12,105 nt of DNA from a virus (IMGVR_UViG_2609459833_000011:1-12105); one strand, 5' to 3'. Numbered from the stretch's first letter, positions 376 through 11,349 are shown. Program-made: numbers and translations. Notes: generated by a model not told the origin, from the sequence alone.

Positions 376-405
376 GCCTGTGTCCATATTACGTGGGTAG
401 GATCA
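1..405 (+). mobile_element. IS3-family insertion sequence, 3' portion including right terminal inverted repeat; element continues left of the window
   Basis: Open frame from base 1 encodes the C-terminal end of an IS3 OrfB transposase. Bases about 367-405 (…aggcctgtgtccatattacgtgggtaggatca) are the reverse complement of the IS3 terminal repeat as I recall it (TGATCCTACCCACGTAATATGGACA…). Boundary at 405 placed from that recalled sequence. Confidence 0.85.
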
Positions 406-976
406 ATCCACCAATTTTTATGCTCTTGGCTGGTGCTTTCTCCATTTTTTTCATCGTTTCTTCGGATGGCTTATCTTGAAGCATTAACACAGATTCTTTT
501 TCATCTGTGAATGTATTAATTAGCCAATTCAAATGCGCCTCAAGCTCCCTTGCTCGAAGCGATGTGGATTGAACGATCATGACATGGTTGTTTAGTACAC
601 CAAAATATAAAATTGAATCTACAAACTCTCTTTTTTTGTCACTACGTTTATCTCCATCAATAATTATATCATTAGACGTGATGGAGTTAATGTCATAAAA
701 TTTAACATTATCACTAAGCTCTAATAGAGACTGGCTTTTGTCTTTTTCAAATAAAACCAGTTGCCCAAAAAGTATAGTTTTGTATGTGTCGCTTTTATTT
801 AAGAAACGATACCCCGAATTTTCATCTGAAGGTGTTATTTTTTCTTGTCTACTAAGTACTTTTTCTGCAACGCCGCCCTCACCTATAATACTAAGTAGTA
901 TGTTTTGTAATGATGATTTGCTGTGTGGGATTACTGCTTTTTTATAATGAACGACTTTTTGTCTGTTATCTTTCAT
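389..976 (-). CDS. Hypothetical protein (195 codons as read), AT-rich, in the rex-equivalent slot downstream of cI; 3' end fused to the IS3 terminal repeat, so probably truncated
   Basis: ATG at 976-974 and a long open frame. The last about 5 codons and the TAA stop (389-391) lie inside the IS3 inverted repeat (389-405), so the native C-terminus is missing. Markedly A/T-rich codon usage compared with cI. No family recognised by eye. Confidence 0.6.
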   Translation of the reverse strand: MKDNRQKVVHYKKAVIPHSKSSLQNILLSIIGEGGVAEKVLSRQEKITPSDENSGYRFLNKSDTYKTILFGQLVLFEKDKSQSLLELSDNVKFYDINSITSNDIIIDGDKRSDKKREFVDSILYFGVLNNHVMIVQSTSLRARELEAHLNWLINTFTDEKESVLMLQDKPSEETMKKMEKAPAKSIKIGGLILPT

Positions 977-2153: not shown

Positions 2154-2699
2154 ATGACTATGCAACCACTTACATACCAACAGACTAGCGGATTTAGCCC
2201 GACTGCGGTGATAAATCGTTCTCAAACAAAACAAGCTCCAGGCCACGAAAAAATCCGTGATGCCGTCCGCGCCTGGTCGGCTGCAGATAATCAGGATGTT
2301 GTTGCCGCACTCATTGTGAATGAGTATCGGGAGCAGGGCGGCGGCACCATCGATTTCCCTGATGATGTCAGCCGTGCACGCCAGAAGCTGTTCCGCTTCC
2401 TCGATAACAAATTCGATTCTGAAAAATACCGAAATAACGTGCGTGAACTGACCCCGGCAATTCTGGCGGTACTACCGCTGGAATATCGCGGCCACCTGGT
2501 TGAGCAGGATAGCTTCATGGCTCGGCTGGCTGAAATGGAAAAGGAACTCAGTGAGGCAAAACAGGCTGTCATTCTCAACGCACCACGCCACCAGAAACTG
2601 AAGGAGATGAGTGAAGGCATTGTGTCGATGTTTCGTGTGGACCCGGATCTGGCTGGTCCACTGATGGCGATGGTCACCACCATGCTGGGGGCAATATGA
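2154..2699 (+). CDS. Hypothetical early protein in the cII position (181 aa); possible CII-like/YdaT-like regulator, family not verified
   Basis: Long ORF directly after cro on the same strand, stop overlapping the upstream ATG of the O frame. Far larger than lambda CII; assignment is by position only. Start could alternatively be ATG 2160. Confidence 0.65.
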   Translation: MTMQPLTYQQTSGFSPTAVINRSQTKQAPGHEKIRDAVRAWSAADNQDVVAALIVNEYREQGGGTIDFPDDVSRARQKLFRFLDNKFDSEKYRNNVRELTPAILAVLPLEYRGHLVEQDSFMARLAEMEKELSEAKQAVILNAPRHQKLKEMSEGIVSMFRVDPDLAGPLMAMVTTMLGAI

Positions 2700-2785
2700 C
2701 AGGTTCGGAAATGGCGAAAGCCGGTCTGCGCGAACAGAACCGACTTTCAGGTGCAAATCGTAACACACTCATTGCGGGAGGAATT

Positions 2786-3715
2786 ATGGCAAACACTGCT
2801 GAGATATTCAATTTTCCAGTGCCGGATGCGGCACAAAAGGAGCCGCGCGTGGCAGATCTCGATGATGGTTATACGCGCATTGCAAATGAGTTGCTGGAAG
2901 CTGTGATGCTGGCCGGATTAACACAGCACCAGCTTCTGGTCTTTCTGGCTGTCATGCGCAAAACATATGGCTTTAATAAAAAACTGGATTGGGTTAGCAA
3001 CGAGCAACTTTCCGAATTAACCGGGATATTGCCGCACAAGTGTTCTGCTGCAAAAAGTGTTCTGGTAAAGCGTGGGATTCTTATTCAGAGCGGGCGGAAT
3101 ATCGGCATCAATAATGTGGTCAGTGAATGGTCAACATTACCCGAATCAGGTAAGAAAAATAAAGTTTACCTGAAAGAGGTAAATTTACCTGAATCAGGTA
3201 AGAAAAGTTTACCCAAATCAGGTAAAGGCACTTACCCGAATCAGGTAAACACAAAAGACAAACTAACAAAAGACAATATAAAACCTTTTTCGTCCGAGAA
3301 TTCTGACGAATCCTCTGACCAGCCAGAAAATGCCCTTCCTGTGGTGAAACCGGATGCTGCGATTCAGAGCGGCAGCAAGTGGGGGACAGCAGAAGACCTG
3401 ACTGCCGCAGAGTGGATGTTTGACATGGTGAAGACCATCGCGCCATCAGCCAGAAAACCGAATTTTGCAGGGTGGGCTAACGATATCCGCCTGATGCGTG
3501 AACGTGACGGACGTAACCACCGCGACATGTGCGTGCTGTTCCGCTGGGCCTGCCAGGACAACTTCTGGTCCGGTAACGTGCTGAGTCCGGCCAAACTACG
3601 CGACAAGTGGACCCAGCTCGAAATCAACCGTAACAAGCAACAGGCTGGCGTGACAGCCGGAAAACCAAAACTCGACCTGACGAACACTGACTGGATTTAC
3701 GGGGTGGAGTTATGA
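2786..3715 (+). CDS. O: Replication initiator protein O (lambda O family)
   Basis: MANTAEIFNF…VADLDDGYTRIANELLEA…LLVFLAVMRKTYGFNK…SNEQLSELTG… parallels lambda O from memory. ATG 2786 has a strong SD GGGAGG (2776-2781) and aligns with the lambda O N-terminus. Iterons lie inside the gene; stop overlaps the P start (ATGA). Confidence 0.9.
   Translation: MANTAEIFNFPVPDAAQKEPRVADLDDGYTRIANELLEAVMLAGLTQHQLLVFLAVMRKTYGFNKKLDWVSNEQLSELTGILPHKCSAAKSVLVKRGILIQSGRNIGINNVVSEWSTLPESGKKNKVYLKEVNLPESGKKSLPKSGKGTYPNQVNTKDKLTKDNIKPFSSENSDESSDQPENALPVVKPDAAIQSGSKWGTAEDLTAAEWMFDMVKTIAPSARKPNFAGWANDIRLMRERDGRNHRDMCVLFRWACQDNFWSGNVLSPAKLRDKWTQLEINRNKQQAGVTAGKPKLDLTNTDWIYGVEL
3137..3251 (+). repeat. Origin-of-replication iterons inside O: four clear and one degenerate copy of about TTACCyrAATCAGGTAA at roughly 24-bp spacing, followed by an A-rich tract
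   Basis: Copies at about 3137-3154, 3165-3183 (degenerate), 3185-3203, 3209-3228 and 3232-3251, each with internal dyad symmetry (CTGAatCAGG). Followed by acacaaaagacaaactaacaaaagacaatataaaacc (to about 3292). Same architecture as lambda ori inside O. Confidence 0.75.
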
Positions 3716-4422
3716 AAAACATCGCCGCACAGATGGTTAATTTTGACCGTGAGCAGATGCGCCGGATCGCCAATAACATGCCGGAACAGTACGACGAAAA
3801 GCCGCAGGTACAGCAGGTAGCGCAGATTATCAATGGTGTGTTCAGCCAGTTACTGGCAACTTTCCCGGCGAGCCTGGCTAACCGGGACCAGAATGAACTG
3901 AACGAAATCCGCCGCCAGTGGGTTCTGGCTTTCCGGGAAAATGGGATCACCACGATGGAACAGGTTAACGCTGGAATGCGCGTAGCCCGTCGGCAGAATC
4001 GACCATTCCTGCCATCACCCGGGCAGTTTGTCGCCTGGTGCCGGGAAGAAGCATCCGTTAACGTCGGGCTGCCAAACGTCAGCGAGCTGGTTGATATGGT
4101 CTATGAGTATTGTCGGAAGCGTGGCCTGTATCCAGATGCAGAGTCTTATCCATGGAAATCAAACGCGCACTACTGGCTGGTTACCAACCTGTACCAGAAC
4201 ATGCGGGCCAATGCGTTGACTGACGCGGAATTACGGCGCATGGCTGCCGATGAACTGTCCTGTATGACCGCGCGAATTAACCGTGGTGAAGCGATCCCTG
4301 AACCGGTGAAACAACTTCCTGTCATGGGCGGCAGGCCGCTTAATCGTGTTCAGAGCTTGGAAAAAATTAAACAATTGCGTGCTAAACATGGATTATGTAG
4401 AGGGAAAAGGTTTAGTGGATGA
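3712..4422 (+). CDS. P: Replication protein P (DnaB helicase loader, lambda P family)
   Basis: MKNIAAQMVNFDREQMRRIANNMPEQYDEKPQVQQVAQIINGVFSQLLATFPASLANRDQNE… is near-identical to lambda P as I recall it over most of its length. The last about 20 codons differ and are AT-rich. Confidence 0.95.
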   Translation: MKNIAAQMVNFDREQMRRIANNMPEQYDEKPQVQQVAQIINGVFSQLLATFPASLANRDQNELNEIRRQWVLAFRENGITTMEQVNAGMRVARRQNRPFLPSPGQFVAWCREEASVNVGLPNVSELVDMVYEYCRKRGLYPDAESYPWKSNAHYWLVTNLYQNMRANALTDAELRRMAADELSCMTARINRGEAIPEPVKQLPVMGGRPLNRVQSLEKIKQLRAKHGLCRGKRFSG

Positions 4423-4454
4423 AAGTAATGAGGTGATTTCCTTCTCTCCCACAC

Positions 4455-4545
4455 TTCAAAAGATAGAGTTTATTATTTGAATTTACTATAATTTACTGAT
4501 AAAACAAAAGAATTGTAGAGCAATTTTCATTTGAGGATGAAGTAA
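4455..4545 (+). promoter_or_regulatory. Candidate promoter and RBS region for the cargo operon
   Basis: AT-rich leader with TATAAT at 4487-4492 (no convincing -35 at 17-bp spacing) and SD GAGGA at 4533-4537, 8 nt before ATG 4546. Sequence-only call. Confidence 0.25.
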
Positions 4546-6192
4546 ATGTGTGAAACCTATATTTTTAGGTTCCGTGACCTAGGAAAAAGTGAAGGATTTA
4601 CCATCGAGCAACACAATAACATTGCTCGCCAAGAAGGGAATGTTTGGTGGGGGTGGTGGGCTAAATCTGGTGAGCGTTTCCCATCACTGGAACTAAAAAA
4701 TGCGGCAGAAAAAAATAAACAAATATATTTTTTTGATTCAGGGCGGCTTAAATTTTATACCGCTGTATTAAAGGATACTTGCTCGTCAGCTTTAGGGGAT
4801 ATAAAAAAGCAATCTCCTAAGGATGGTTGCAGAACCCCAGCATATTATAATGAGAATGAGTTGCTGGGATGGTTAAATGTTTCTGAGATTATAGAAATTG
4901 ATGCTTGTGATATCCTCAAAAAATTCACATATATTCCATTGGATGCATTGTTTGCAGGTAATAAAGATTTAGATGAGCAACTTTTCAACAAAATTGTCTT
5001 TTCTTCAGCTGAATTAAAAAAACAAGATAGAACTATTTGGAAGATTAGACCTGCAAATGATAAAGATTTACAGCATGAGTCATTAGCATCTCATTATGTT
5101 CCTTATAATTTCAGTCGGAAGTATAGCCAAAAAAAAGGGGAGTTTATAATTTGGCTTTCGGATATTCATTTTGATGGCGGAAATGGGAAACATGCATTTC
5201 CGACACAAGATAATGATCAGCTAAAATGTTTATCCTCTCGAGTGGTGGAGTTGGCTGGAAAATATAATAATGGGAGTAAATGTGCTGGGTTGGCTATTTC
5301 AGGTGATTTGACGTGGCAGTCACAGAAAGAGGGATTCGAGCAAGCTTTGAATTTTATCAAAGATGTTAGTTCTTCTCTTAGTCTGACAACGGATGATATA
5401 ATTATTTGTCCTGGGAATCACGATGTAGGTCTGGTTTCTAAAGATGAGTACTTTAAAATCGTTGGTAAGCCTGTAACGGATAAACCATGGAAAATTCTGG
5501 CGGAAAACTACCATAGCGAAAGTAAACTTAATTATATAAAATTTTATCGAGATTTTTTTCAAAGGGAACCTGAAGAAAATTTATCACAAGGAAGGAAATT
5601 TTTACTAGGTGGCCATAAAGTTGTTGAAATAGCCGCATTGAACTCATGCGTATTACAACAAGTAAAAGATTCATTTTTGGGCATGGGATTTGTCGGTGAG
5701 CAACAACTCAGTGATGTTGCAAAATCTATGGGATGGATGAATGATAGCGGAGGAGATATACTCAAAAAGAAAGGTGTTATAAGAATTGCTATGCTTCACC
5801 ATCACCTAACTTCTATTAATGAAGTTGAAGATGCCTATCTTGATTCAAGATATAGTGTAACATTAGATGCAGAGCGATTATTACGTTGGGTAGTAAGGCA
5901 TAAAGTTGATTATATTCTGCATGGTCATATGCACAGAAGTAGTTTTATTACAATAACAAAAAAACTATCTCCGTTAGAACCAGTGACGGATTCAAATCCT
6001 GAACATACATTCCAAATTGTTTCTTTGGGAAGTTCAGGAGTTGTTAGTTCGGAATTGCCAAGTCAGGATTGTGCTAACTATGCATGCGTACTGGATTTTT
6101 CTGGCGAAAAGCTAACTTTTAATTTTTTCAAGCTTGATAAACAGAGCGGAGAAAAAGTGGCGGCTACTTATATTGTTGAAGGTTTATTATGA
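4546..6192 (+). CDS. Calcineurin-like metallophosphoesterase (548 aa) with an unassigned N-terminal domain of about 200 aa
   Basis: Complete metallophosphoesterase motif set in order: DxH (WLSDIHFDGGN), GD (LAISGDLT), GNHD (ICPGNHDVG), H (AMLHHH), GHxH (ILHGHMH). N-terminal third has no recognisable motifs except a Trp cluster (GNVWWGWW). Strongly AT-rich codon usage. Confidence 0.85.
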   Translation: MCETYIFRFRDLGKSEGFTIEQHNNIARQEGNVWWGWWAKSGERFPSLELKNAAEKNKQIYFFDSGRLKFYTAVLKDTCSSALGDIKKQSPKDGCRTPAYYNENELLGWLNVSEIIEIDACDILKKFTYIPLDALFAGNKDLDEQLFNKIVFSSAELKKQDRTIWKIRPANDKDLQHESLASHYVPYNFSRKYSQKKGEFIIWLSDIHFDGGNGKHAFPTQDNDQLKCLSSRVVELAGKYNNGSKCAGLAISGDLTWQSQKEGFEQALNFIKDVSSSLSLTTDDIIICPGNHDVGLVSKDEYFKIVGKPVTDKPWKILAENYHSESKLNYIKFYRDFFQREPEENLSQGRKFLLGGHKVVEIAALNSCVLQQVKDSFLGMGFVGEQQLSDVAKSMGWMNDSGGDILKKKGVIRIAMLHHHLTSINEVEDAYLDSRYSVTLDAERLLRWVVRHKVDYILHGHMHRSSFITITKKLSPLEPVTDSNPEHTFQIVSLGSSGVVSSELPSQDCANYACVLDFSGEKLTFNFFKLDKQSGEKVAATYIVEGLL

Positions 6193-7025
6193 AATTACTT
6201 ATTACTGATTTGGATAATACACTGTACGATTGGGTGAGTTTTTACTCCCAGTCATTTAGTGCCATGGCAGAGCAATTATCTAAGGATATTGATGTGCCTT
6301 TGGATACGCTCCTGTCAGAATATAAAACAATTCATCAGAAGTTTGGTAACTCAGAAAAACCATTTGCTACTTTAGAGCTACCATCTGTGATATCTTACTT
6401 TGGAACTAATGATAAAACGATTTTGCAGGAAAAACTTACTAATGTTTTTCAGGCGTTTAGCACAAAACGTAACCAGACATTAATGTTGTATCCTACTGTA
6501 AAAGAAACGCTGGAATTATTGAAGAAACGGGGGGTAAAAATTGTAGGGCATACTGAAGCTTTGGAGTTTAATTCTTTATATCGTCTGAATAAGCTTGGTA
6601 TAATTGATTTTTTTGATCATCTTTATACATTAGAAGATATTCATAATATCCACCCGAATCCCAAAAATGCAAAAAAAATACCTGTGAAGGATGACTTTGT
6701 AATTAGATTGTCCTGCGCTGAGTCAAAGCCAAACCCTAAATTGCTTGAGCACATATGTTCTTTTGAAGGAGTTAGTGTTGAAGATGCGGTATACATTGGC
6801 GATTCTATAACTAAAGATATGTCCATGGCTAAAGCTGTGGGGGTTACTGCTGTTTGGGCTAATTATGGGCGACAGTTTTCACCTGAATTGTGGAAAGTTT
6901 TAGTGAAAATCACACACTGGAAAGATGCAGATGTGGAGAGGGAGGAACAACTTAGAAAAGCATTCTCCAATGTTAGACCTGATTATGTTGTTAATAGTTT
7001 TTCAGAGCTGCTGAATTTGAAATGA
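6189..7025 (+). CDS. HAD-superfamily hydrolase (phosphatase-like), 278 aa
   Basis: HAD motif I at the N-terminus (LITDLDNTLYD), a candidate motif II Thr (VGHTEA), motif III Lys (ESKPNPK) and motif IV GDxxxD (YIGDSITKD). Cap-like insert between motifs I and II. ATG overlaps the upstream stop (ATGA at 6189-6192). Confidence 0.85.
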   Translation: MKLLITDLDNTLYDWVSFYSQSFSAMAEQLSKDIDVPLDTLLSEYKTIHQKFGNSEKPFATLELPSVISYFGTNDKTILQEKLTNVFQAFSTKRNQTLMLYPTVKETLELLKKRGVKIVGHTEALEFNSLYRLNKLGIIDFFDHLYTLEDIHNIHPNPKNAKKIPVKDDFVIRLSCAESKPNPKLLEHICSFEGVSVEDAVYIGDSITKDMSMAKAVGVTAVWANYGRQFSPELWKVLVKITHWKDADVEREEQLRKAFSNVRPDYVVNSFSELLNLK

Positions 7026-7169
7026 GCATGTGCAGGCTCCAAATTTTTAATGATTTGGAGTTCTTTATGGGGTTATTTTTTAATTTGGTGATTTTTCCCA
7101 ATATTGAGATGTTGTTGAACTCGTGAGTTATATTTAACGTATTTGATGTTAATGAAATAATAATATCAC

Positions 7170-7194
7170 AATGCAAGCTCCCTGCATTTTCTTG
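7170..7194 (+). terminator. Weak candidate intrinsic terminator downstream of the cargo operon
   Basis: Stem aatgca (7170-7175), loop agctccc, stem tgcatt (7183-7188), then ttcttg. Short AT-rich stem, so low confidence. Confidence 0.2.
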
Positions 7195-7518
7195 TAGGGG
7201 GCATGCTATTTAGAATAAGCTTATGGTCAAGATTAAATTATGAACTGCTATTTTGATGGGCTGTTTATTATATTGGGGTTGTTTTCTTTTTGAGTTTTTA
7301 TGGTTGAGATGAACGTTTGTTAAATGTTTTAACACCCTTTGTTACAACATTCATCATTTTTACTGTTTGCTAACATGATGTTAGACTGAAATTATTAATT
7401 TGTGAAACTAATCATCTAATTTAACAATACAAAATTGAGATCCAATAATCAAAATGCCATAATAATGTCATCGGAGCCTGAACAACTCCGGTGACTTCTG
7501 CGCTAAACGGGGACGTTT

Positions 7519-7620
7519 ATGCGCACATACAATCCAAACTCTCTTCTCCATTCACAGATGCAGAAATGCACCTGCGTTTTTTTGCATCCAGCGTCTGACC
7601 TCTGTGGAGGTGAAGCGTGA
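7519..7620 (+). CDS. ylcH: Small ORF (33 aa) immediately upstream of and overlapping the ybcN start; ylcH-like by position and size
   Basis: ATG 7519 preceded by GGGA (7510-7513); in-frame stop TAA at 7504 bounds it upstream. Its stop TGA 7618-7620 overlaps the ybcN GTG 7617 (GTGA). Product [33 protein letters not shown]. Synteny recalled from K-12 DLP12, not verified. Confidence 0.4.
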
Positions 7621-8072
7621 ACCTACCACAAGATGGCATCAAACTGCATCGCGGTAACTTCACCGCTATCGGTCAGCAGATCCAGCCTTATCTGGAGGAC
7701 GGCAAATGCTTTCGCATGGTGCTTAAACCGTGGCGTGAGAAACGCAGTCTTTCCCAGAATGCACTCAGCCACATGTGGTACAGCGAAATCAGTGAATACC
7801 TCATCAGCAGGGGGAAATCGTTCGCTACCGCAGCATGGGTAAAAGATGCTCTCAAACACACATACCTCGGTTATGAAACCAAGGACCTGGTTGATGTCGT
7901 AACCGGTGAAATCACCACTATTCAGTCGTTACGCCATACCTCCGATCTTGATACCGGAGAGATGTATGTCTTCCTGTGTAAGGTTGAAGCCTGGGCGATG
8001 AATATTGGCTGCCACCTGACTATTCCGCCGAGCTGCGAGTTCCAGCTGCTGCGCGACAAGCAGGAGGCGTAA
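7617..8072 (+). CDS. ybcN: YbcN-like protein (NinB-family recombination/base-flipping protein of DLP12-type prophages)
   Basis: GTG start with SD GGAGG (7606-7610). Product [15 protein letters not shown]…[16 protein letters not shown]… matches my memory of DLP12 YbcN and carries the NinB-like S-x-x-QN-x-x-x-W motif. First gene of a nin-type block. Confidence 0.8.
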
Positions 8073-8242
8073 TGGCTACACCGCTTATTCGTGTCATGAA
8101 CGGGCACATTTACAGAGTACCAAATCGTCGTAAGCGTAAACCTGAGCTGAAGCCTTCCGAAATACCAACACTGCTAGGGTATACCGCCAGCCTGGTTGAT
8201 AAAAAATGGTTGCGACTGGCAGCAAGGAGGAATCATGGCTGA
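8072..8242 (+). CDS. ninE: NinE-like small protein (56 aa)
   Basis: Below the ORF-track size cutoff; found by manual translation: [56 protein letters not shown]. The basic RKRKP and the YTA…W…WLR pattern resemble lambda NinE. Start overlaps the ybcN stop (TAATG). Confidence 0.6.
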   Translation: MATPLIRVMNGHIYRVPNRRKRKPELKPSEIPTLLGYTASLVDKKWLRLAARRNHG

Positions 8243-8525
8243 TTTGAGAAAAGCAGCGCGTGGTCGGGAATGCCAGGTAAGAATCCCTGGCATATGTAAT
8301 GGCAACCCTGAAACGTCTGTACTGGCACATATCCGGCTGGCTGGATTGTGTGGTACCGGTATCAAACCGCCAGACCTGATTGCCACCATTGCATGTTCTG
8401 CCTGCCACGACGAAATCGACCGCCGCACACATTTTGTCGATGCTGCATATGCAAAAGAATGCGCGCTGGAAGGTATGGCGAGAACACAGGTTATCTGGCT
8501 GAAAGAGGGGGTTATTAAGGCGTGA
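8235..8525 (+). CDS. ybcO: YbcO-like protein (DUF1364-type, putative nuclease of DLP12-type prophages)
   Basis: ATG 8235 with SD AAGGAGG (8224-8230), giving 96 aa: [32 protein letters not shown]… with Cys/His-rich content. The ORF-track start at 8196 lacks an RBS. Overlaps the ninE 3' end and the rusA start. Confidence 0.8.
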
Positions 8526-8884
8526 ATACCTACAGCATCACATTACCCTGGCCTCCGAGCAATAATCGCTATTACCGCCATAATCGCGGACGCACGCACA
8601 TCAGCGCAGAGGGGCAGGCATACCGCGATAACGTCGCCCGAATCATTAAAAACGCAATGCTGGATATCGGCCTGGCTATGCCTGTGAAAATCCGCATTGA
8701 GTGCCACATGCCGGATCGCCGTAGCCGTGACCTGGATAATCTGCAAAAAGCCGCTTTTGACGCACTCACTAAAGCAGGTTTCTGGCTGGATGATGAGCTG
8801 GTCGTTGATTACCGCGTTGTGAAGATGCCTGTTACCAAAGGTGGGAAGCTGGAACTGACCATCACTGAAATGGGGAATGAATGA
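8522..8884 (+). CDS. rusA: Holliday-junction resolvase RusA
   Basis: Product [67 protein letters not shown]… matches E. coli RusA (120 aa) from memory. GTG start overlapping the ybcO stop. Confidence 0.9.
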
Positions 8885-9678: not shown

Positions 9679-10761
9679 TTAGAACTGGTAAACCATACCT
9701 ACAGCAACGATATCATCGGTAGCAACGCCAGATGCTTTCGTGAAATCGCTCTTATCAATCAGGTTGATTTTGTAGTCAACAAAAGTGGACATATTTTTGT
9801 TGAAGTAATAGGTTGCACCTACATCAACATATTCAACCAGGTCCTGATCACCCCAAACACCCAAGTCTTTTCCTTTAGAATGCAGGTAAGCAACGGATGG
9901 ACGCAGGCCGAAGTCGAACTGATATTGTGCAACAGCTTCGAAGTTTTGTGCTTTGTTGGCAATATGGTTATTACCAAAAACAGTCATGTTCTGGGTTTCA
10001 GAATAGGTGGTGGCCAGATAGATGTTGTTCGCATCATATTTCAGACCAGCTGCCCATACTTCAGCATTTTGACCAGAAGCATTCAGACCGTTGTTACCGT
10101 AGATAACCTGATTATTAGTGCGATCAGATTTAGCATAGGTTGCACCCACGCCGAATCCTTCATACTCATAAGTAGTTGAGAAACCGAAACCATCGCCATT
10201 AGCTTCAGTTACTTCATTTCGGTCATTTTTGCCCTGATACTGAGCTGCAAAGTTCAGGCCATCAACCAGACCAAAGAAGTCGTTGTTACGATAAGTTGCA
10301 ACACCTGTGGTGCGACCAGTCATGAATACATCTGTTTGGGTCCAGGTATCGCCACCGAATTCTGGCAGAACGTCAGTCCACGCACCGATGTCGTATGCTA
10401 CACCGTAGTTACGGCCGTAATCGATTGAGCCGTAGTCACCGAATTTCAGGCCTGCAAATGCAAGACGGGTTTTGTCTTTGGAGGAACCTTGAGATTCAGC
10501 GCGGTTGCCTTTGAATTCATATTCCCACTGACCGAAACCAGTCAGTTGATCGTTGATTTGGGTTTCACCTTTGAAGCCAAGACGGGCATAAGTAGTATCA
10601 CCATCATCTGCATCATTAGAGGAGAAGTAGTGCTTAGCATTAACTTTCCCGTACAGATCCAGCTTGTTACTGTCTTTATTATAAATTTCAGCTGCCTGAG
10701 CAGACATCGCCATCAGTACTGATGCAGCTACAGCAGAAATTGCCACTGTTAATTTTTTCAT
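9679..10761 (-). CDS. nmpC: General diffusion porin of the OmpC/OmpF/PhoE/NmpC family, prophage-borne (moron)
   Basis: 360-aa product with signal peptide [23 protein letters not shown]|AEIYNKD and hallmark porin segments (…[10 protein letters not shown]…[14 protein letters not shown]…[23 protein letters not shown]…) ending in the C-terminal Phe (MVYQF). Opposite strand to flanking phage genes. Symbol assigned by DLP12 synteny, not exact identity. Confidence 0.85.
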
Positions 10762-11349
10762 CGTGAGCCCTTTTTTTTGAACTATTATTAAAAAATGATG
10801 TCACTGCGCGATAAATATTCATCTAATCAATGTGATTATTTCAAGATGTAAGTTTTAGTTTCTCATTTAATTTGTGAAGTAGATCTCTATTTTTATCTGA
10901 ACTTTTTCTATCGAAACCTATTTATGGCTCTTATTTGAACAAAAATAAACCTATTAGCTAATTTATATTAATGGCTGTTATTTATGGGGATTCTATAATT
11001 CGGCAGTTTAATTTAAATCAACTAAAAATAACGTCTGAAATTATTTATTGGTTATTTGTTGAGGTTTTCTTATGTATTTGTGGTGGTGTTTTGAACACTC
11101 GGTAGCATTCTCATAAATATCATTCAGTGGTTTACGTACGTAAAAAATTGGTTATGCTGTTAAGAGTGGTTACTTCGTCACACAGCTTAAACCCGCCGTC
11201 GAGCTGGTTTTTCCATTTTTTGAGTCTCGATATTAGCTGATAACCCAATACCTGAGTTATTCACTGACTCCGAGTCTGTTACGTTTCTGCTTTTTTGTGA
11301 TACGTTGTATTCCCTCAATTTACACCCGCTTTGTCTGCGAGGTGGGGTT

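Follow-up and report, generated by a model that had tools for sequence, protein, structure and literature searches.

Our analysis supports the conclusion that the AT-rich pair of genes lying between replication gene P and the nin genes in the viral sequence IMGVR_UViG_2609459833_000011:1-12105 is very probably a type I Metis system (PUA-Cal-HAD, DS-9), an abortive-infection defense that a DLP12-like lambdoid prophage has as cargo. We refer to this 12,105-nt stretch as the window and count all coordinates from its first letter. The two-gene feature is real and intact, and the element that hosts it is a DLP12-like lambdoid prophage. The pair, misA and misB, looks functional yet is not new, the system having already been described and annotated. 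A preliminary description of this DNA had presented the cassette as an undescribed module that matched no named system; that assessment gives way to the family model, the existing annotation and the near-identity to a tested allele set out below.

MisA scores 529 bits against the NCBIfam equivalog NF053862 DS9_1_antiphage ("DS9_1 anti-phage phosphoesterase"), for which the cut-off is 420, and a profile hidden Markov model search thus places the protein in a named anti-phage family rather than an undescribed one. RefSeq annotates misA ("anti-phage phosphoesterase") and misB on a 99.9%-identical copy from isolate AHB29, and 12 complete Escherichia coli genomes in RefSeq carry the cassette at 99.9-100% identity. 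Reference sequences for the Metis system of E. coli 402837 were taken from the supplementary tables of Osterman et al. (bioRxiv 10.1101/2025.11.05.686725), who coined the names Metis, MisA and MisB. The window MisB is identical to its 402837 counterpart at 278 of 278 residues and MisA at 398 of the 399 residues compared (residues 1-399 of 548), and misA agrees with the synthesized 402837 gene at 397 of its first 399 nt. As judged from these alignments, the window allele is essentially one of the experimentally tested alleles, and it is this near-identity that allows function to be transferred, provisionally, to the window copy.

The two open reading frames (ORFs) overlap and are read from the same strand. 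An ATGA at 6189-6192 combines the stop codon of misA with the start codon of misB, which suggests that the two genes are translationally coupled, and a Shine-Dalgarno sequence, GAGGA at 4533-4537, stands 8 nt ahead of the misA ATG. The guanine-plus-cytosine (GC) content of 4423-7518 is 35.0%, compared with 51.0% (2154-4422) and 51.3% (7617-8884) in the flanks, placing the misA-misB cassette 16 GC points below its surroundings and making this the most AT-rich 3.1-kb stretch within the window (range 0.348-0.499). GC content at third codon positions (GC3) is 0.26 in misA and 0.32 in misB, compared with 0.52-0.61 in O, P and ninB. The AT-rich block of two ORFs between P and the nin genes, the ATGA overlap and the dedicated Shine-Dalgarno sequence had all been noted in the preliminary description, and the composition and ORF calls agree with it. 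The limits it gave, 4423-7518, came within ~70 nt of the junctions at either end; sister prophages diverge from the window between 4349 and ~7455. The features of the region are:

3712..4422, + strand: replication gene P, given for context (Pfam Phage_lambda_P, 3e-61).
4349..7455, no strand assigned: lineage-specific block made up of the Metis cassette, its leader and a non-coding tail, 34.7% GC, delimited by the sister-prophage junctions.
4416..4545, + strand: misA leader, with 73% homology to the leader of the chromosomal-island allele, a Shine-Dalgarno sequence and a -10-like box.
4546..6192, + strand: misA, putative sensor-effector of 548 amino acids (PF24405, PF00149, NF053862).
6189..7025, + strand: misB, HAD-superfamily (C1-cap) phosphatase of 278 amino acids (HAD_2, Hydrolase, PADLOC PDLC03008).
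7026..7455, no strand assigned: AT-rich (29% GC) non-coding tail of 430 bp, private to the prophage-borne allele.
7456..7616, + strand: conserved nin-region leader with a ylcH-like ORF of 33 amino acids (7519-7620), part of the common backbone and outside the cassette.

The N-terminus of MisA, which the preliminary description had left unassigned, corresponds to the Pfam family PF24405 "Pua-like" (residues 5-178, E=7e-43). Residues 201-464 match a calcineurin-like (Calcineurin-CE) metallophosphoesterase (Pfam PF00149 Metallophos, 3e-12), in agreement with the earlier call. The published domain limits for the PUA-Cal-HAD protein are 6-179 and 202-465 (Zhang et al., bioRxiv 10.64898/2026.01.15.699771). 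Residues of the pocket for N6-methyl-dAMP (m6dAMP) are present in the window protein (R8, F9, R10, H23, W35, W38, K40, Y100 and Y101), as are motif II (VWWGWWxKxxExxP), which reads VWWGWWAKSGERFP at 33-46, and motif V (TPxYY), which reads TPAYY at 97-101. The metal-binding and catalytic residues D206, H208, D254, N291, H292, N366, H419, H461 and H463 are likewise present; D207, H209, D255, N292, N367, H420, H462 and H464 of the ECOR28/DS-9 protein map onto the window protein with each number lowered by one. All pocket residues at which mutations abolish defense in ECOR28/DS-9 (W35, W37/W38, Y100/Y101, R8/R10 and K40) are kept, and so are the catalytic residues with the same mutant effect (D207/H209, D255, N292, N367, H420 and H462/H464 in ECOR28/DS-9 numbering). 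PHROGs returned generic metallophosphoesterase and HAD families only for the two proteins. In a copy of the PDB without the PUA-Cal-HAD cryo-electron microscopy (cryo-EM) structures, the sole sequence match to MisA was a distant Listeria metallophosphoesterase (2xmo, E=2e-4) and MisB matched generic HAD hydrolases only.

MisB matches HAD_2 (1e-19) and Hydrolase (3e-17) across its length, as expected from its earlier assignment to the HAD superfamily. It keeps D7, D9, W15, E56, T122, K180, G204, D205 and D210, which represent motifs I-IV together with cap residues W15 and E56, and every residue proven essential in ECOR28/DS-9 is retained (D7/D9, W15, E56, K180, G204/D205/D210). PADLOC v2 (2023), which had been proposed as a check on the locus, has no model matching MisA; it does match MisB, through PDLC03008 "Hydrolase" (4e-57 over the full length), a match accounted for by the homology between the window MisB and the MisB of type II Metis. 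The DefensePredictor supplement equates this model with the Rst_Hydrolase-Tm__Hydrolase family. Because only MisB was matched, and through an Rst hydrolase model, PADLOC alone would mis-suggest type II Metis (Rst_Hydrolase-3Tm). We rejected that assignment: the partner gene is misA, and no ORF with three transmembrane segments stands beside misB in the window.

The limits of the block were set against the sister prophages of strains CB6837 (L004) and DX6 (L005), whose backbone is 96-98% identical to that of the window. Homology to both ends at 4348, 74 nt ahead of the end of P, and restarts at 7456-7499. The right flank, also present in ~2,800 E. coli genomes, in phage 82 and in lambda-like isolates, starts at 7432-7459. 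In phage 82 the homologous stretch is the nin-region leader, with an annotated regulator-binding site, -10 element and ribosome-binding site, and in RefSeq copies the ylcH-like ORF appears as a hypothetical protein directly upstream of ybcN, which it overlaps by 4 nt. The 3′ end of P (4349-4422, 35% GC) is divergent yet encodes a P-like last 24 amino acids, ending in ...VQSLEKIKQLRAKHGLCRGKRFSG versus ...AQALAKIAEIKAKFGLKGASV in the sisters. This variant end (4330-4545) is confined to 12 Metis-carrying genomes, and the divergent P C-terminus, the leader, the two genes and the 430-bp tail co-occur in those twelve genomes only; ren is absent from the window. No direct or inverted repeats were found flanking the 4349-7455 block, and transposition was rejected as its source for lack of terminal repeats. 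Given this lack and a joint that falls inside P, the block more likely arrived when lambdoid genomes recombined within P and the nin leader.

About 130 nt of the misA leader are 73% identical to the leader of the allele found in a chromosomal island, Shine-Dalgarno sequence and -10-like box included, and this homology argues that the regulatory region travels with the genes. The -10 hexamer of the window leader, TATAAT at 4487-4492, is perfect, the island allele reading TATGAT instead; a weak -35 candidate, TAGAGT at 4464-4469, is separated from the hexamer by a 17-nt spacer. A promoter consensus scan called no promoter in the misA leader (-35 matches 3/6), and its overall counts were no better than those of shuffled sequences. 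At the other end of the cassette, the tail (7026-7455) was found in only 12 of the 5,426 complete E. coli genomes searched, even by sensitive blastn. It matched no Rfam family and contains short, unconserved ORFs only, together with a GC-rich hairpin at 7177-7202 that is a possible terminator with a poor T-run. A hydrophobic ORF of 34 amino acids (7022-7126), whose start overlaps the misB stop in an ATGA, has no counterpart after the island allele and was treated as a chance frame.

The Metis operon has an accessory, mobile distribution. Sensitive blastn found it in 36 of the 5,426 genomes, 12 with the window allele and ~24 with the island allele, and the window allele occurs in a DLP12-like lambdoid prophage only. 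This distribution, divided between a prophage slot and a defense island, argues against the two proteins being housekeeping orthologs in fixed, non-mobile contexts, the outcome that the preliminary description had named as fatal to its proposal. A housekeeping HAD or metallophosphoesterase identity was rejected on the same counts, the two contexts being unrelated, and all housekeeping NCBIfam models scored far under their cut-offs. The island allele is present in strain E308, which was tested by Osterman et al. In strain H15 (L002 1912-15505) it stands beside a TIGR02391-family protein, a restriction endonuclease and a hypothetical protein of 1,040 amino acids, in an island that also holds Hachiman (HamA and a DEAD/DEAH helicase), is bordered by insertion sequence (IS) fragments, lies between fimbrial operons and has no phage genes. 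Among isolates in the GenBank phage collection there is no nucleotide match to the cassette, and the sole protein match in that collection is 30% identical and comes from a faecal metagenome contig.

The interval that houses the cassette holds different cargo in related prophages. In CB6837 the corresponding segment (L004 4713-6346, equivalent to window 4349-7455) encodes a PRTase-CE and NADAR pair that passes the NCBIfam equivalogs DS32_1 and DS32_2 ("anti-phage protein"). The P-to-ylcH slot of DX6 contains ren, IS2 and a DUF4041/T5orf172 protein, and that of strain E9 contains ybcK-type cargo. This comparison across lambdoid prophages sustains the earlier suggestion that the interval is a hotspot for morons and defense genes and that the cassette is accessory cargo within it.

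A second variable slot lies to the left of cI. In the window an IS3-family transposase fragment (1-404, - strand; ORF 10-375; rve/rve_2/rve_3) adjoins and cuts short an AT-rich gene on the left side of the cI-like repressor; the ORF of 195 amino acids at 389-976 (- strand) matches positions 3-199 of the 344-position phrog_3482, and sister homology begins at 405. Sister prophages carry an intact gene of 340 amino acids (WP_000654525.1) with a partner of 168 amino acids, a two-gene cargo at a rex-like position that is disrupted in the window, and neither protein has a Pfam, NCBIfam or PADLOC match. DX6 has a HipA-family kinase and DUF3037 pair in this slot (L005 4467-6040), not the 340/168-amino-acid pair, and both of those domains were newly validated in defense by DefensePredictor (PMC13092281).

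The remaining neighbors of the cassette are those of a lambdoid prophage. Upstream are the cI-like S24 repressor and YdaS/YdaT, followed by replication genes O (Phage_rep_O) and P (Phage_lambda_P); downstream are the ylcH-like ORF, NinB/YbcN, NinE, YbcO, RusA, YlcG, antiterminator Q, a porin gene and the holin. The YdaS-like (PF15943) and YdaT-like (PF06254) genes occupy the cro and cII positions (1896-2699), as in Rac-type immunity regions, and a Rac-like immunity region beside a lambda-type O/P module is a mosaic arrangement. The porin is OmpC/NmpC-like (9679-10761, - strand; Porin_1, 4e-152) and sits between Q and the holin, the classic DLP12-type nmpC moron position; it is followed by a stretch of 30-32% GC (10800-11200).

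The activity of the Metis family is documented in three publications. DefensePredictor (Science 2026, PMC13092281) validated DS-9 as a metallophosphatase and HAD operon in which D207A and N292A of DS-9A abolish defense. Osterman et al. cloned the 402837 system, one of three defending systems, and found that it blocks T2, T4, T5, T6 and T7. Purified 402837 MisA converted nicotinamide adenine dinucleotide (NAD+) to nicotinamide mononucleotide (NMN) and AMP only with m6dAMP and left ATP uncleaved, and MisA activation was specific to N6-methyl-dAMP. The same study established that Metis acts by abortive infection, that denA mutants escape and that Dam is required, dam and denA dependence being reported on the 401675 and ECOR28 alleles (10.1101/2025.11.05.686725; 10.64898/2026.01.15.699771). 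It also reported, on sister alleles, that m6dAMP is toxic and that MisB, a phosphatase of m6dAMP, averts autotoxicity. Zhang et al. described the same trigger for the ECOR28 PUA-Cal-HAD system, with cryo-EM structures and pocket residues. In their system m6dAMP drives a switch from hexamer to filament, the HAD protein converts deoxynucleoside triphosphates (dNTPs) to diphosphates (dNDPs), the calcineurin domain converts dNDPs to monophosphates (dNMPs), and the HAD protein is essential for defense. DS-9 and ECOR28 clones were active from their native upstream regions (PMC13092281; 10.64898/2026.01.15.699771).

By analogy with these systems, we envision a scenario in which the window cassette would respond to breakdown of the host genome. 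Adenines in chromosomal GATC sites are methylated by E. coli Dam, and a lytic phage (T-even, T5 or T7) degrading the chromosome to mononucleotides would free m6dAMP. Once bound in the PUA pocket of MisA, this nucleotide would switch on the C-terminal binuclear-metal calcineurin-like phosphoesterase, which would split NAD+ into NMN plus AMP and, with MisB, take dNTPs to dNDPs and then dNMPs. Phage replication would halt in an already doomed cell, and its neighbors would be protected. MisB is reported to dephosphorylate basal m6dAMP, which would avoid autoimmunity, and/or to perform the first, gamma-phosphatase step on dNTPs. The chain from degradation of Dam-methylated DNA through m6dAMP and MisA activation to metabolite depletion and abortion is supported by two independent groups and would extend to the window copy by analogy. 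A temperate lambdoid phage, which does not degrade host DNA, would not be expected to trip the sensor on induction, and Metis would for that reason be safe as prophage cargo. The TATAAT of the leader would drive expression in the lysogen, shielding both lysogen and prophage from unrelated lytic phages. The preliminary description had proposed a nucleotide-targeting role for the two phosphohydrolases; the published work agrees with the destruction of nucleotides and a cofactor, but the degradation of a cyclic-nucleotide immune signal, its other suggestion, is not what those experiments show.

The two groups differ on the output of the system and on the part played by MisB. In the account of Osterman, Sorek and colleagues, MisA alone is sensor and effector, NAD+ diphosphatase activity is the output, and MisB is a dispensable safety device that turns m6dAMP into m6dA. 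We regard this as a serious possibility whose likelihood falls somewhat short of even. Its in vitro data, NAD+ cleavage that requires m6dAMP and spares ATP, come from the 402837 MisA, which is essentially that of the window; without MisB, MisA gives defense but is toxic, MisB serving to clear basal m6dAMP; and Zhang et al. likewise see HAD-independent NAD+ cleavage in vitro. However, expression in that work was driven from pBAD by arabinose, whereas at the native locus Zhang et al. found NAD+ largely unchanged, dNTPs collapsing, and defense lost in HAD mutants or on HAD deletion. Partial or full depletion of dNTPs or NTPs was seen by Osterman et al. as well. In the account of Zhang, Nobrega, Patel and colleagues, to which we give close to an even chance, a preassembled MisA hexamer with six MisB subunits forms an m6dAMP-induced filament that works as a dNTP sink; MisB is indispensable as a co-effector, and the cleavage of NAD+ is a latent side reaction. 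Cryo-EM, mutagenesis, metabolomics and an in vitro cascade support this account for the ECOR28 allele under native promoters, and the ATGA overlap in the window fits co-translated, stoichiometric partners. It was, however, demonstrated on an 80%-identical allele rather than the window allele, and it clashes with the MisA-only defense and the strong NAD+ depletion of Osterman et al. Moreover, type II Metis, which responds to the same m6dAMP trigger, retains MisB beside a membrane effector with no need of dNDPs, and MisB catalysis is dispensable there (10.1101/2025.11.05.686725), which argues for a ligand-clearing role. Zhang et al. blame the discrepancy on inducible over-expression in the other study; the groups also worked with different alleles. 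It is conceivable, although we think it unlikely, that the dispute is partly allele-specific: 402837-type systems would be NAD+-directed with MisB mainly an m6dAMP scavenger, and placement in the pR operon, the leader and the 430-bp tail would yield low expression in the lysogen and high expression on induction, which could switch the system between outputs. In a lesser variant of this idea, the R95C substitution discussed below may shift ligand sensitivity.

Two further alternatives concern the window copy itself. The cassette could instead serve anti-defense or metabolic takeover, degrading a cyclic-nucleotide immune signal or remodeling nucleotide pools for lytic growth of the prophage. Metallophosphoesterases can cleave cyclic nucleotides, the cassette shows weak PADLOC and NCBIfam similarity to DS-8 and a CBASS-type effector model, and it lies in the early right operon, downstream of P. 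We give this idea almost no credence: the same genes in phage-free E. coli protect against phages and abort infection, a second allele sits in a chromosomal defense island without phage genes, and the pair is in no sequenced phage isolate of the GenBank collection. The other alternative, that the window copy is inactive or altered in specificity, arises from codon 95 of misA (4828-4830), which encodes cysteine where both the tested 402837 protein and the AHB29 copy have arginine (the latter further differs in having N143 where the window has D143). Cysteine 95 lies five residues from Y100/Y101, but position 95 is outside the reported ligand contacts and homologues vary there (R, R, D, K, E, E), and on these grounds we expect the substitution to be neutral. 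Both ORFs are intact, and eight sequenced bovine OkiPb isolates share the window cassette sequence, C95 included; OkiPb01701, checked directly, is identical. We therefore consider a loss or change of function through R95C distinctly improbable.

Some points nevertheless weigh against reading the window copy as a working Metis system. Its anti-phage function is carried over by near-identity to the 402837 system, and the MisA comparison behind that transfer spans residues 1-399 of 548. The one substitution relative to the tested protein falls two residues ahead of motif V (TPAYY). The leader promoter is a consensus-like -10, and because the scan called no promoter there, we infer both the misA promoter and its activity in the lysogen. 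Finally, both mechanistic papers are preprints, discordant on the output (NAD+ or dNTP) and on the need for MisB.

Read as a type I Metis system, the cassette is a true positive for defense cargo in a prophage hotspot, and its general logic had been deduced correctly from the nucleotide sequence alone. It is not a discovery, since Metis was named, characterized and put into annotation pipelines in 2025-2026. What our analysis adds is that a DLP12-like lambdoid prophage carries an experimentally used Metis allele as cargo, in a slot where DS-32 or a DUF4041/T5orf172 gene is the alternative. The native leader and the boundaries defined here (4349 to ~7455) allow the system to be studied at physiological expression, the variable that divides the two mechanistic papers. 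The cassette also serves to illustrate how a detector of host-genome breakdown could be safe for a temperate phage to carry.

Among known systems, the closest relative of the cassette is the Metis system of 402837, which has the same gene order, domains and overlap and differs by R95C over the residues compared; its publication gives no genomic context, whereas the window places the allele in a prophage. The ECOR28/DS-9/E308 allele has the same architecture and essential residues and belongs to the same NCBIfam equivalog family, with a leader 73% identical in nucleotides. Against DS-9 (WP_000665639.1 and WP_000770925.1, the accessions also annotated in strain H15), amino acid identity is 80% for MisA, where an indel of a single residue falls close to position 119, and 78% for MisB. 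The DS-9-type allele resides in a chromosomal island by Hachiman and a restriction enzyme, in contrast to the prophage location of the window allele. Lambda ren, DLP12-type cargo and the DS-32 pair of CB6837 share the slot and the backbone with the cassette, but their genes are unrelated and the window lacks ren. In type II Metis (MisB and MisC, a three-transmembrane effector; Rousset 2022/Osterman 2025) the HAD phosphatase MisB is homologous, but the effector is a membrane protein; in the window, the only ORF downstream of misB is the unconserved frame of 34 amino acids. DS-8, a single metallophosphatase-NACHT protein, has a homologous calcineurin-like domain (NF053861, 1.5e-14, far below cut-off), but the window cassette has no NACHT domain and instead pairs a PUA-like sensor with a HAD partner. 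SIR2 and TIR NADases, dGTPase and dCTP deaminase also bring about abortive infection through depletion of NAD+ or dNTPs, as Metis does. These enzymes have other folds and another chemistry, whereas Metis cleaves the pyrophosphate bond of NAD+ and dephosphorylates dNTPs sequentially, and it is set off by a modified mononucleotide of host origin, not by a phage protein or a cyclic second messenger.

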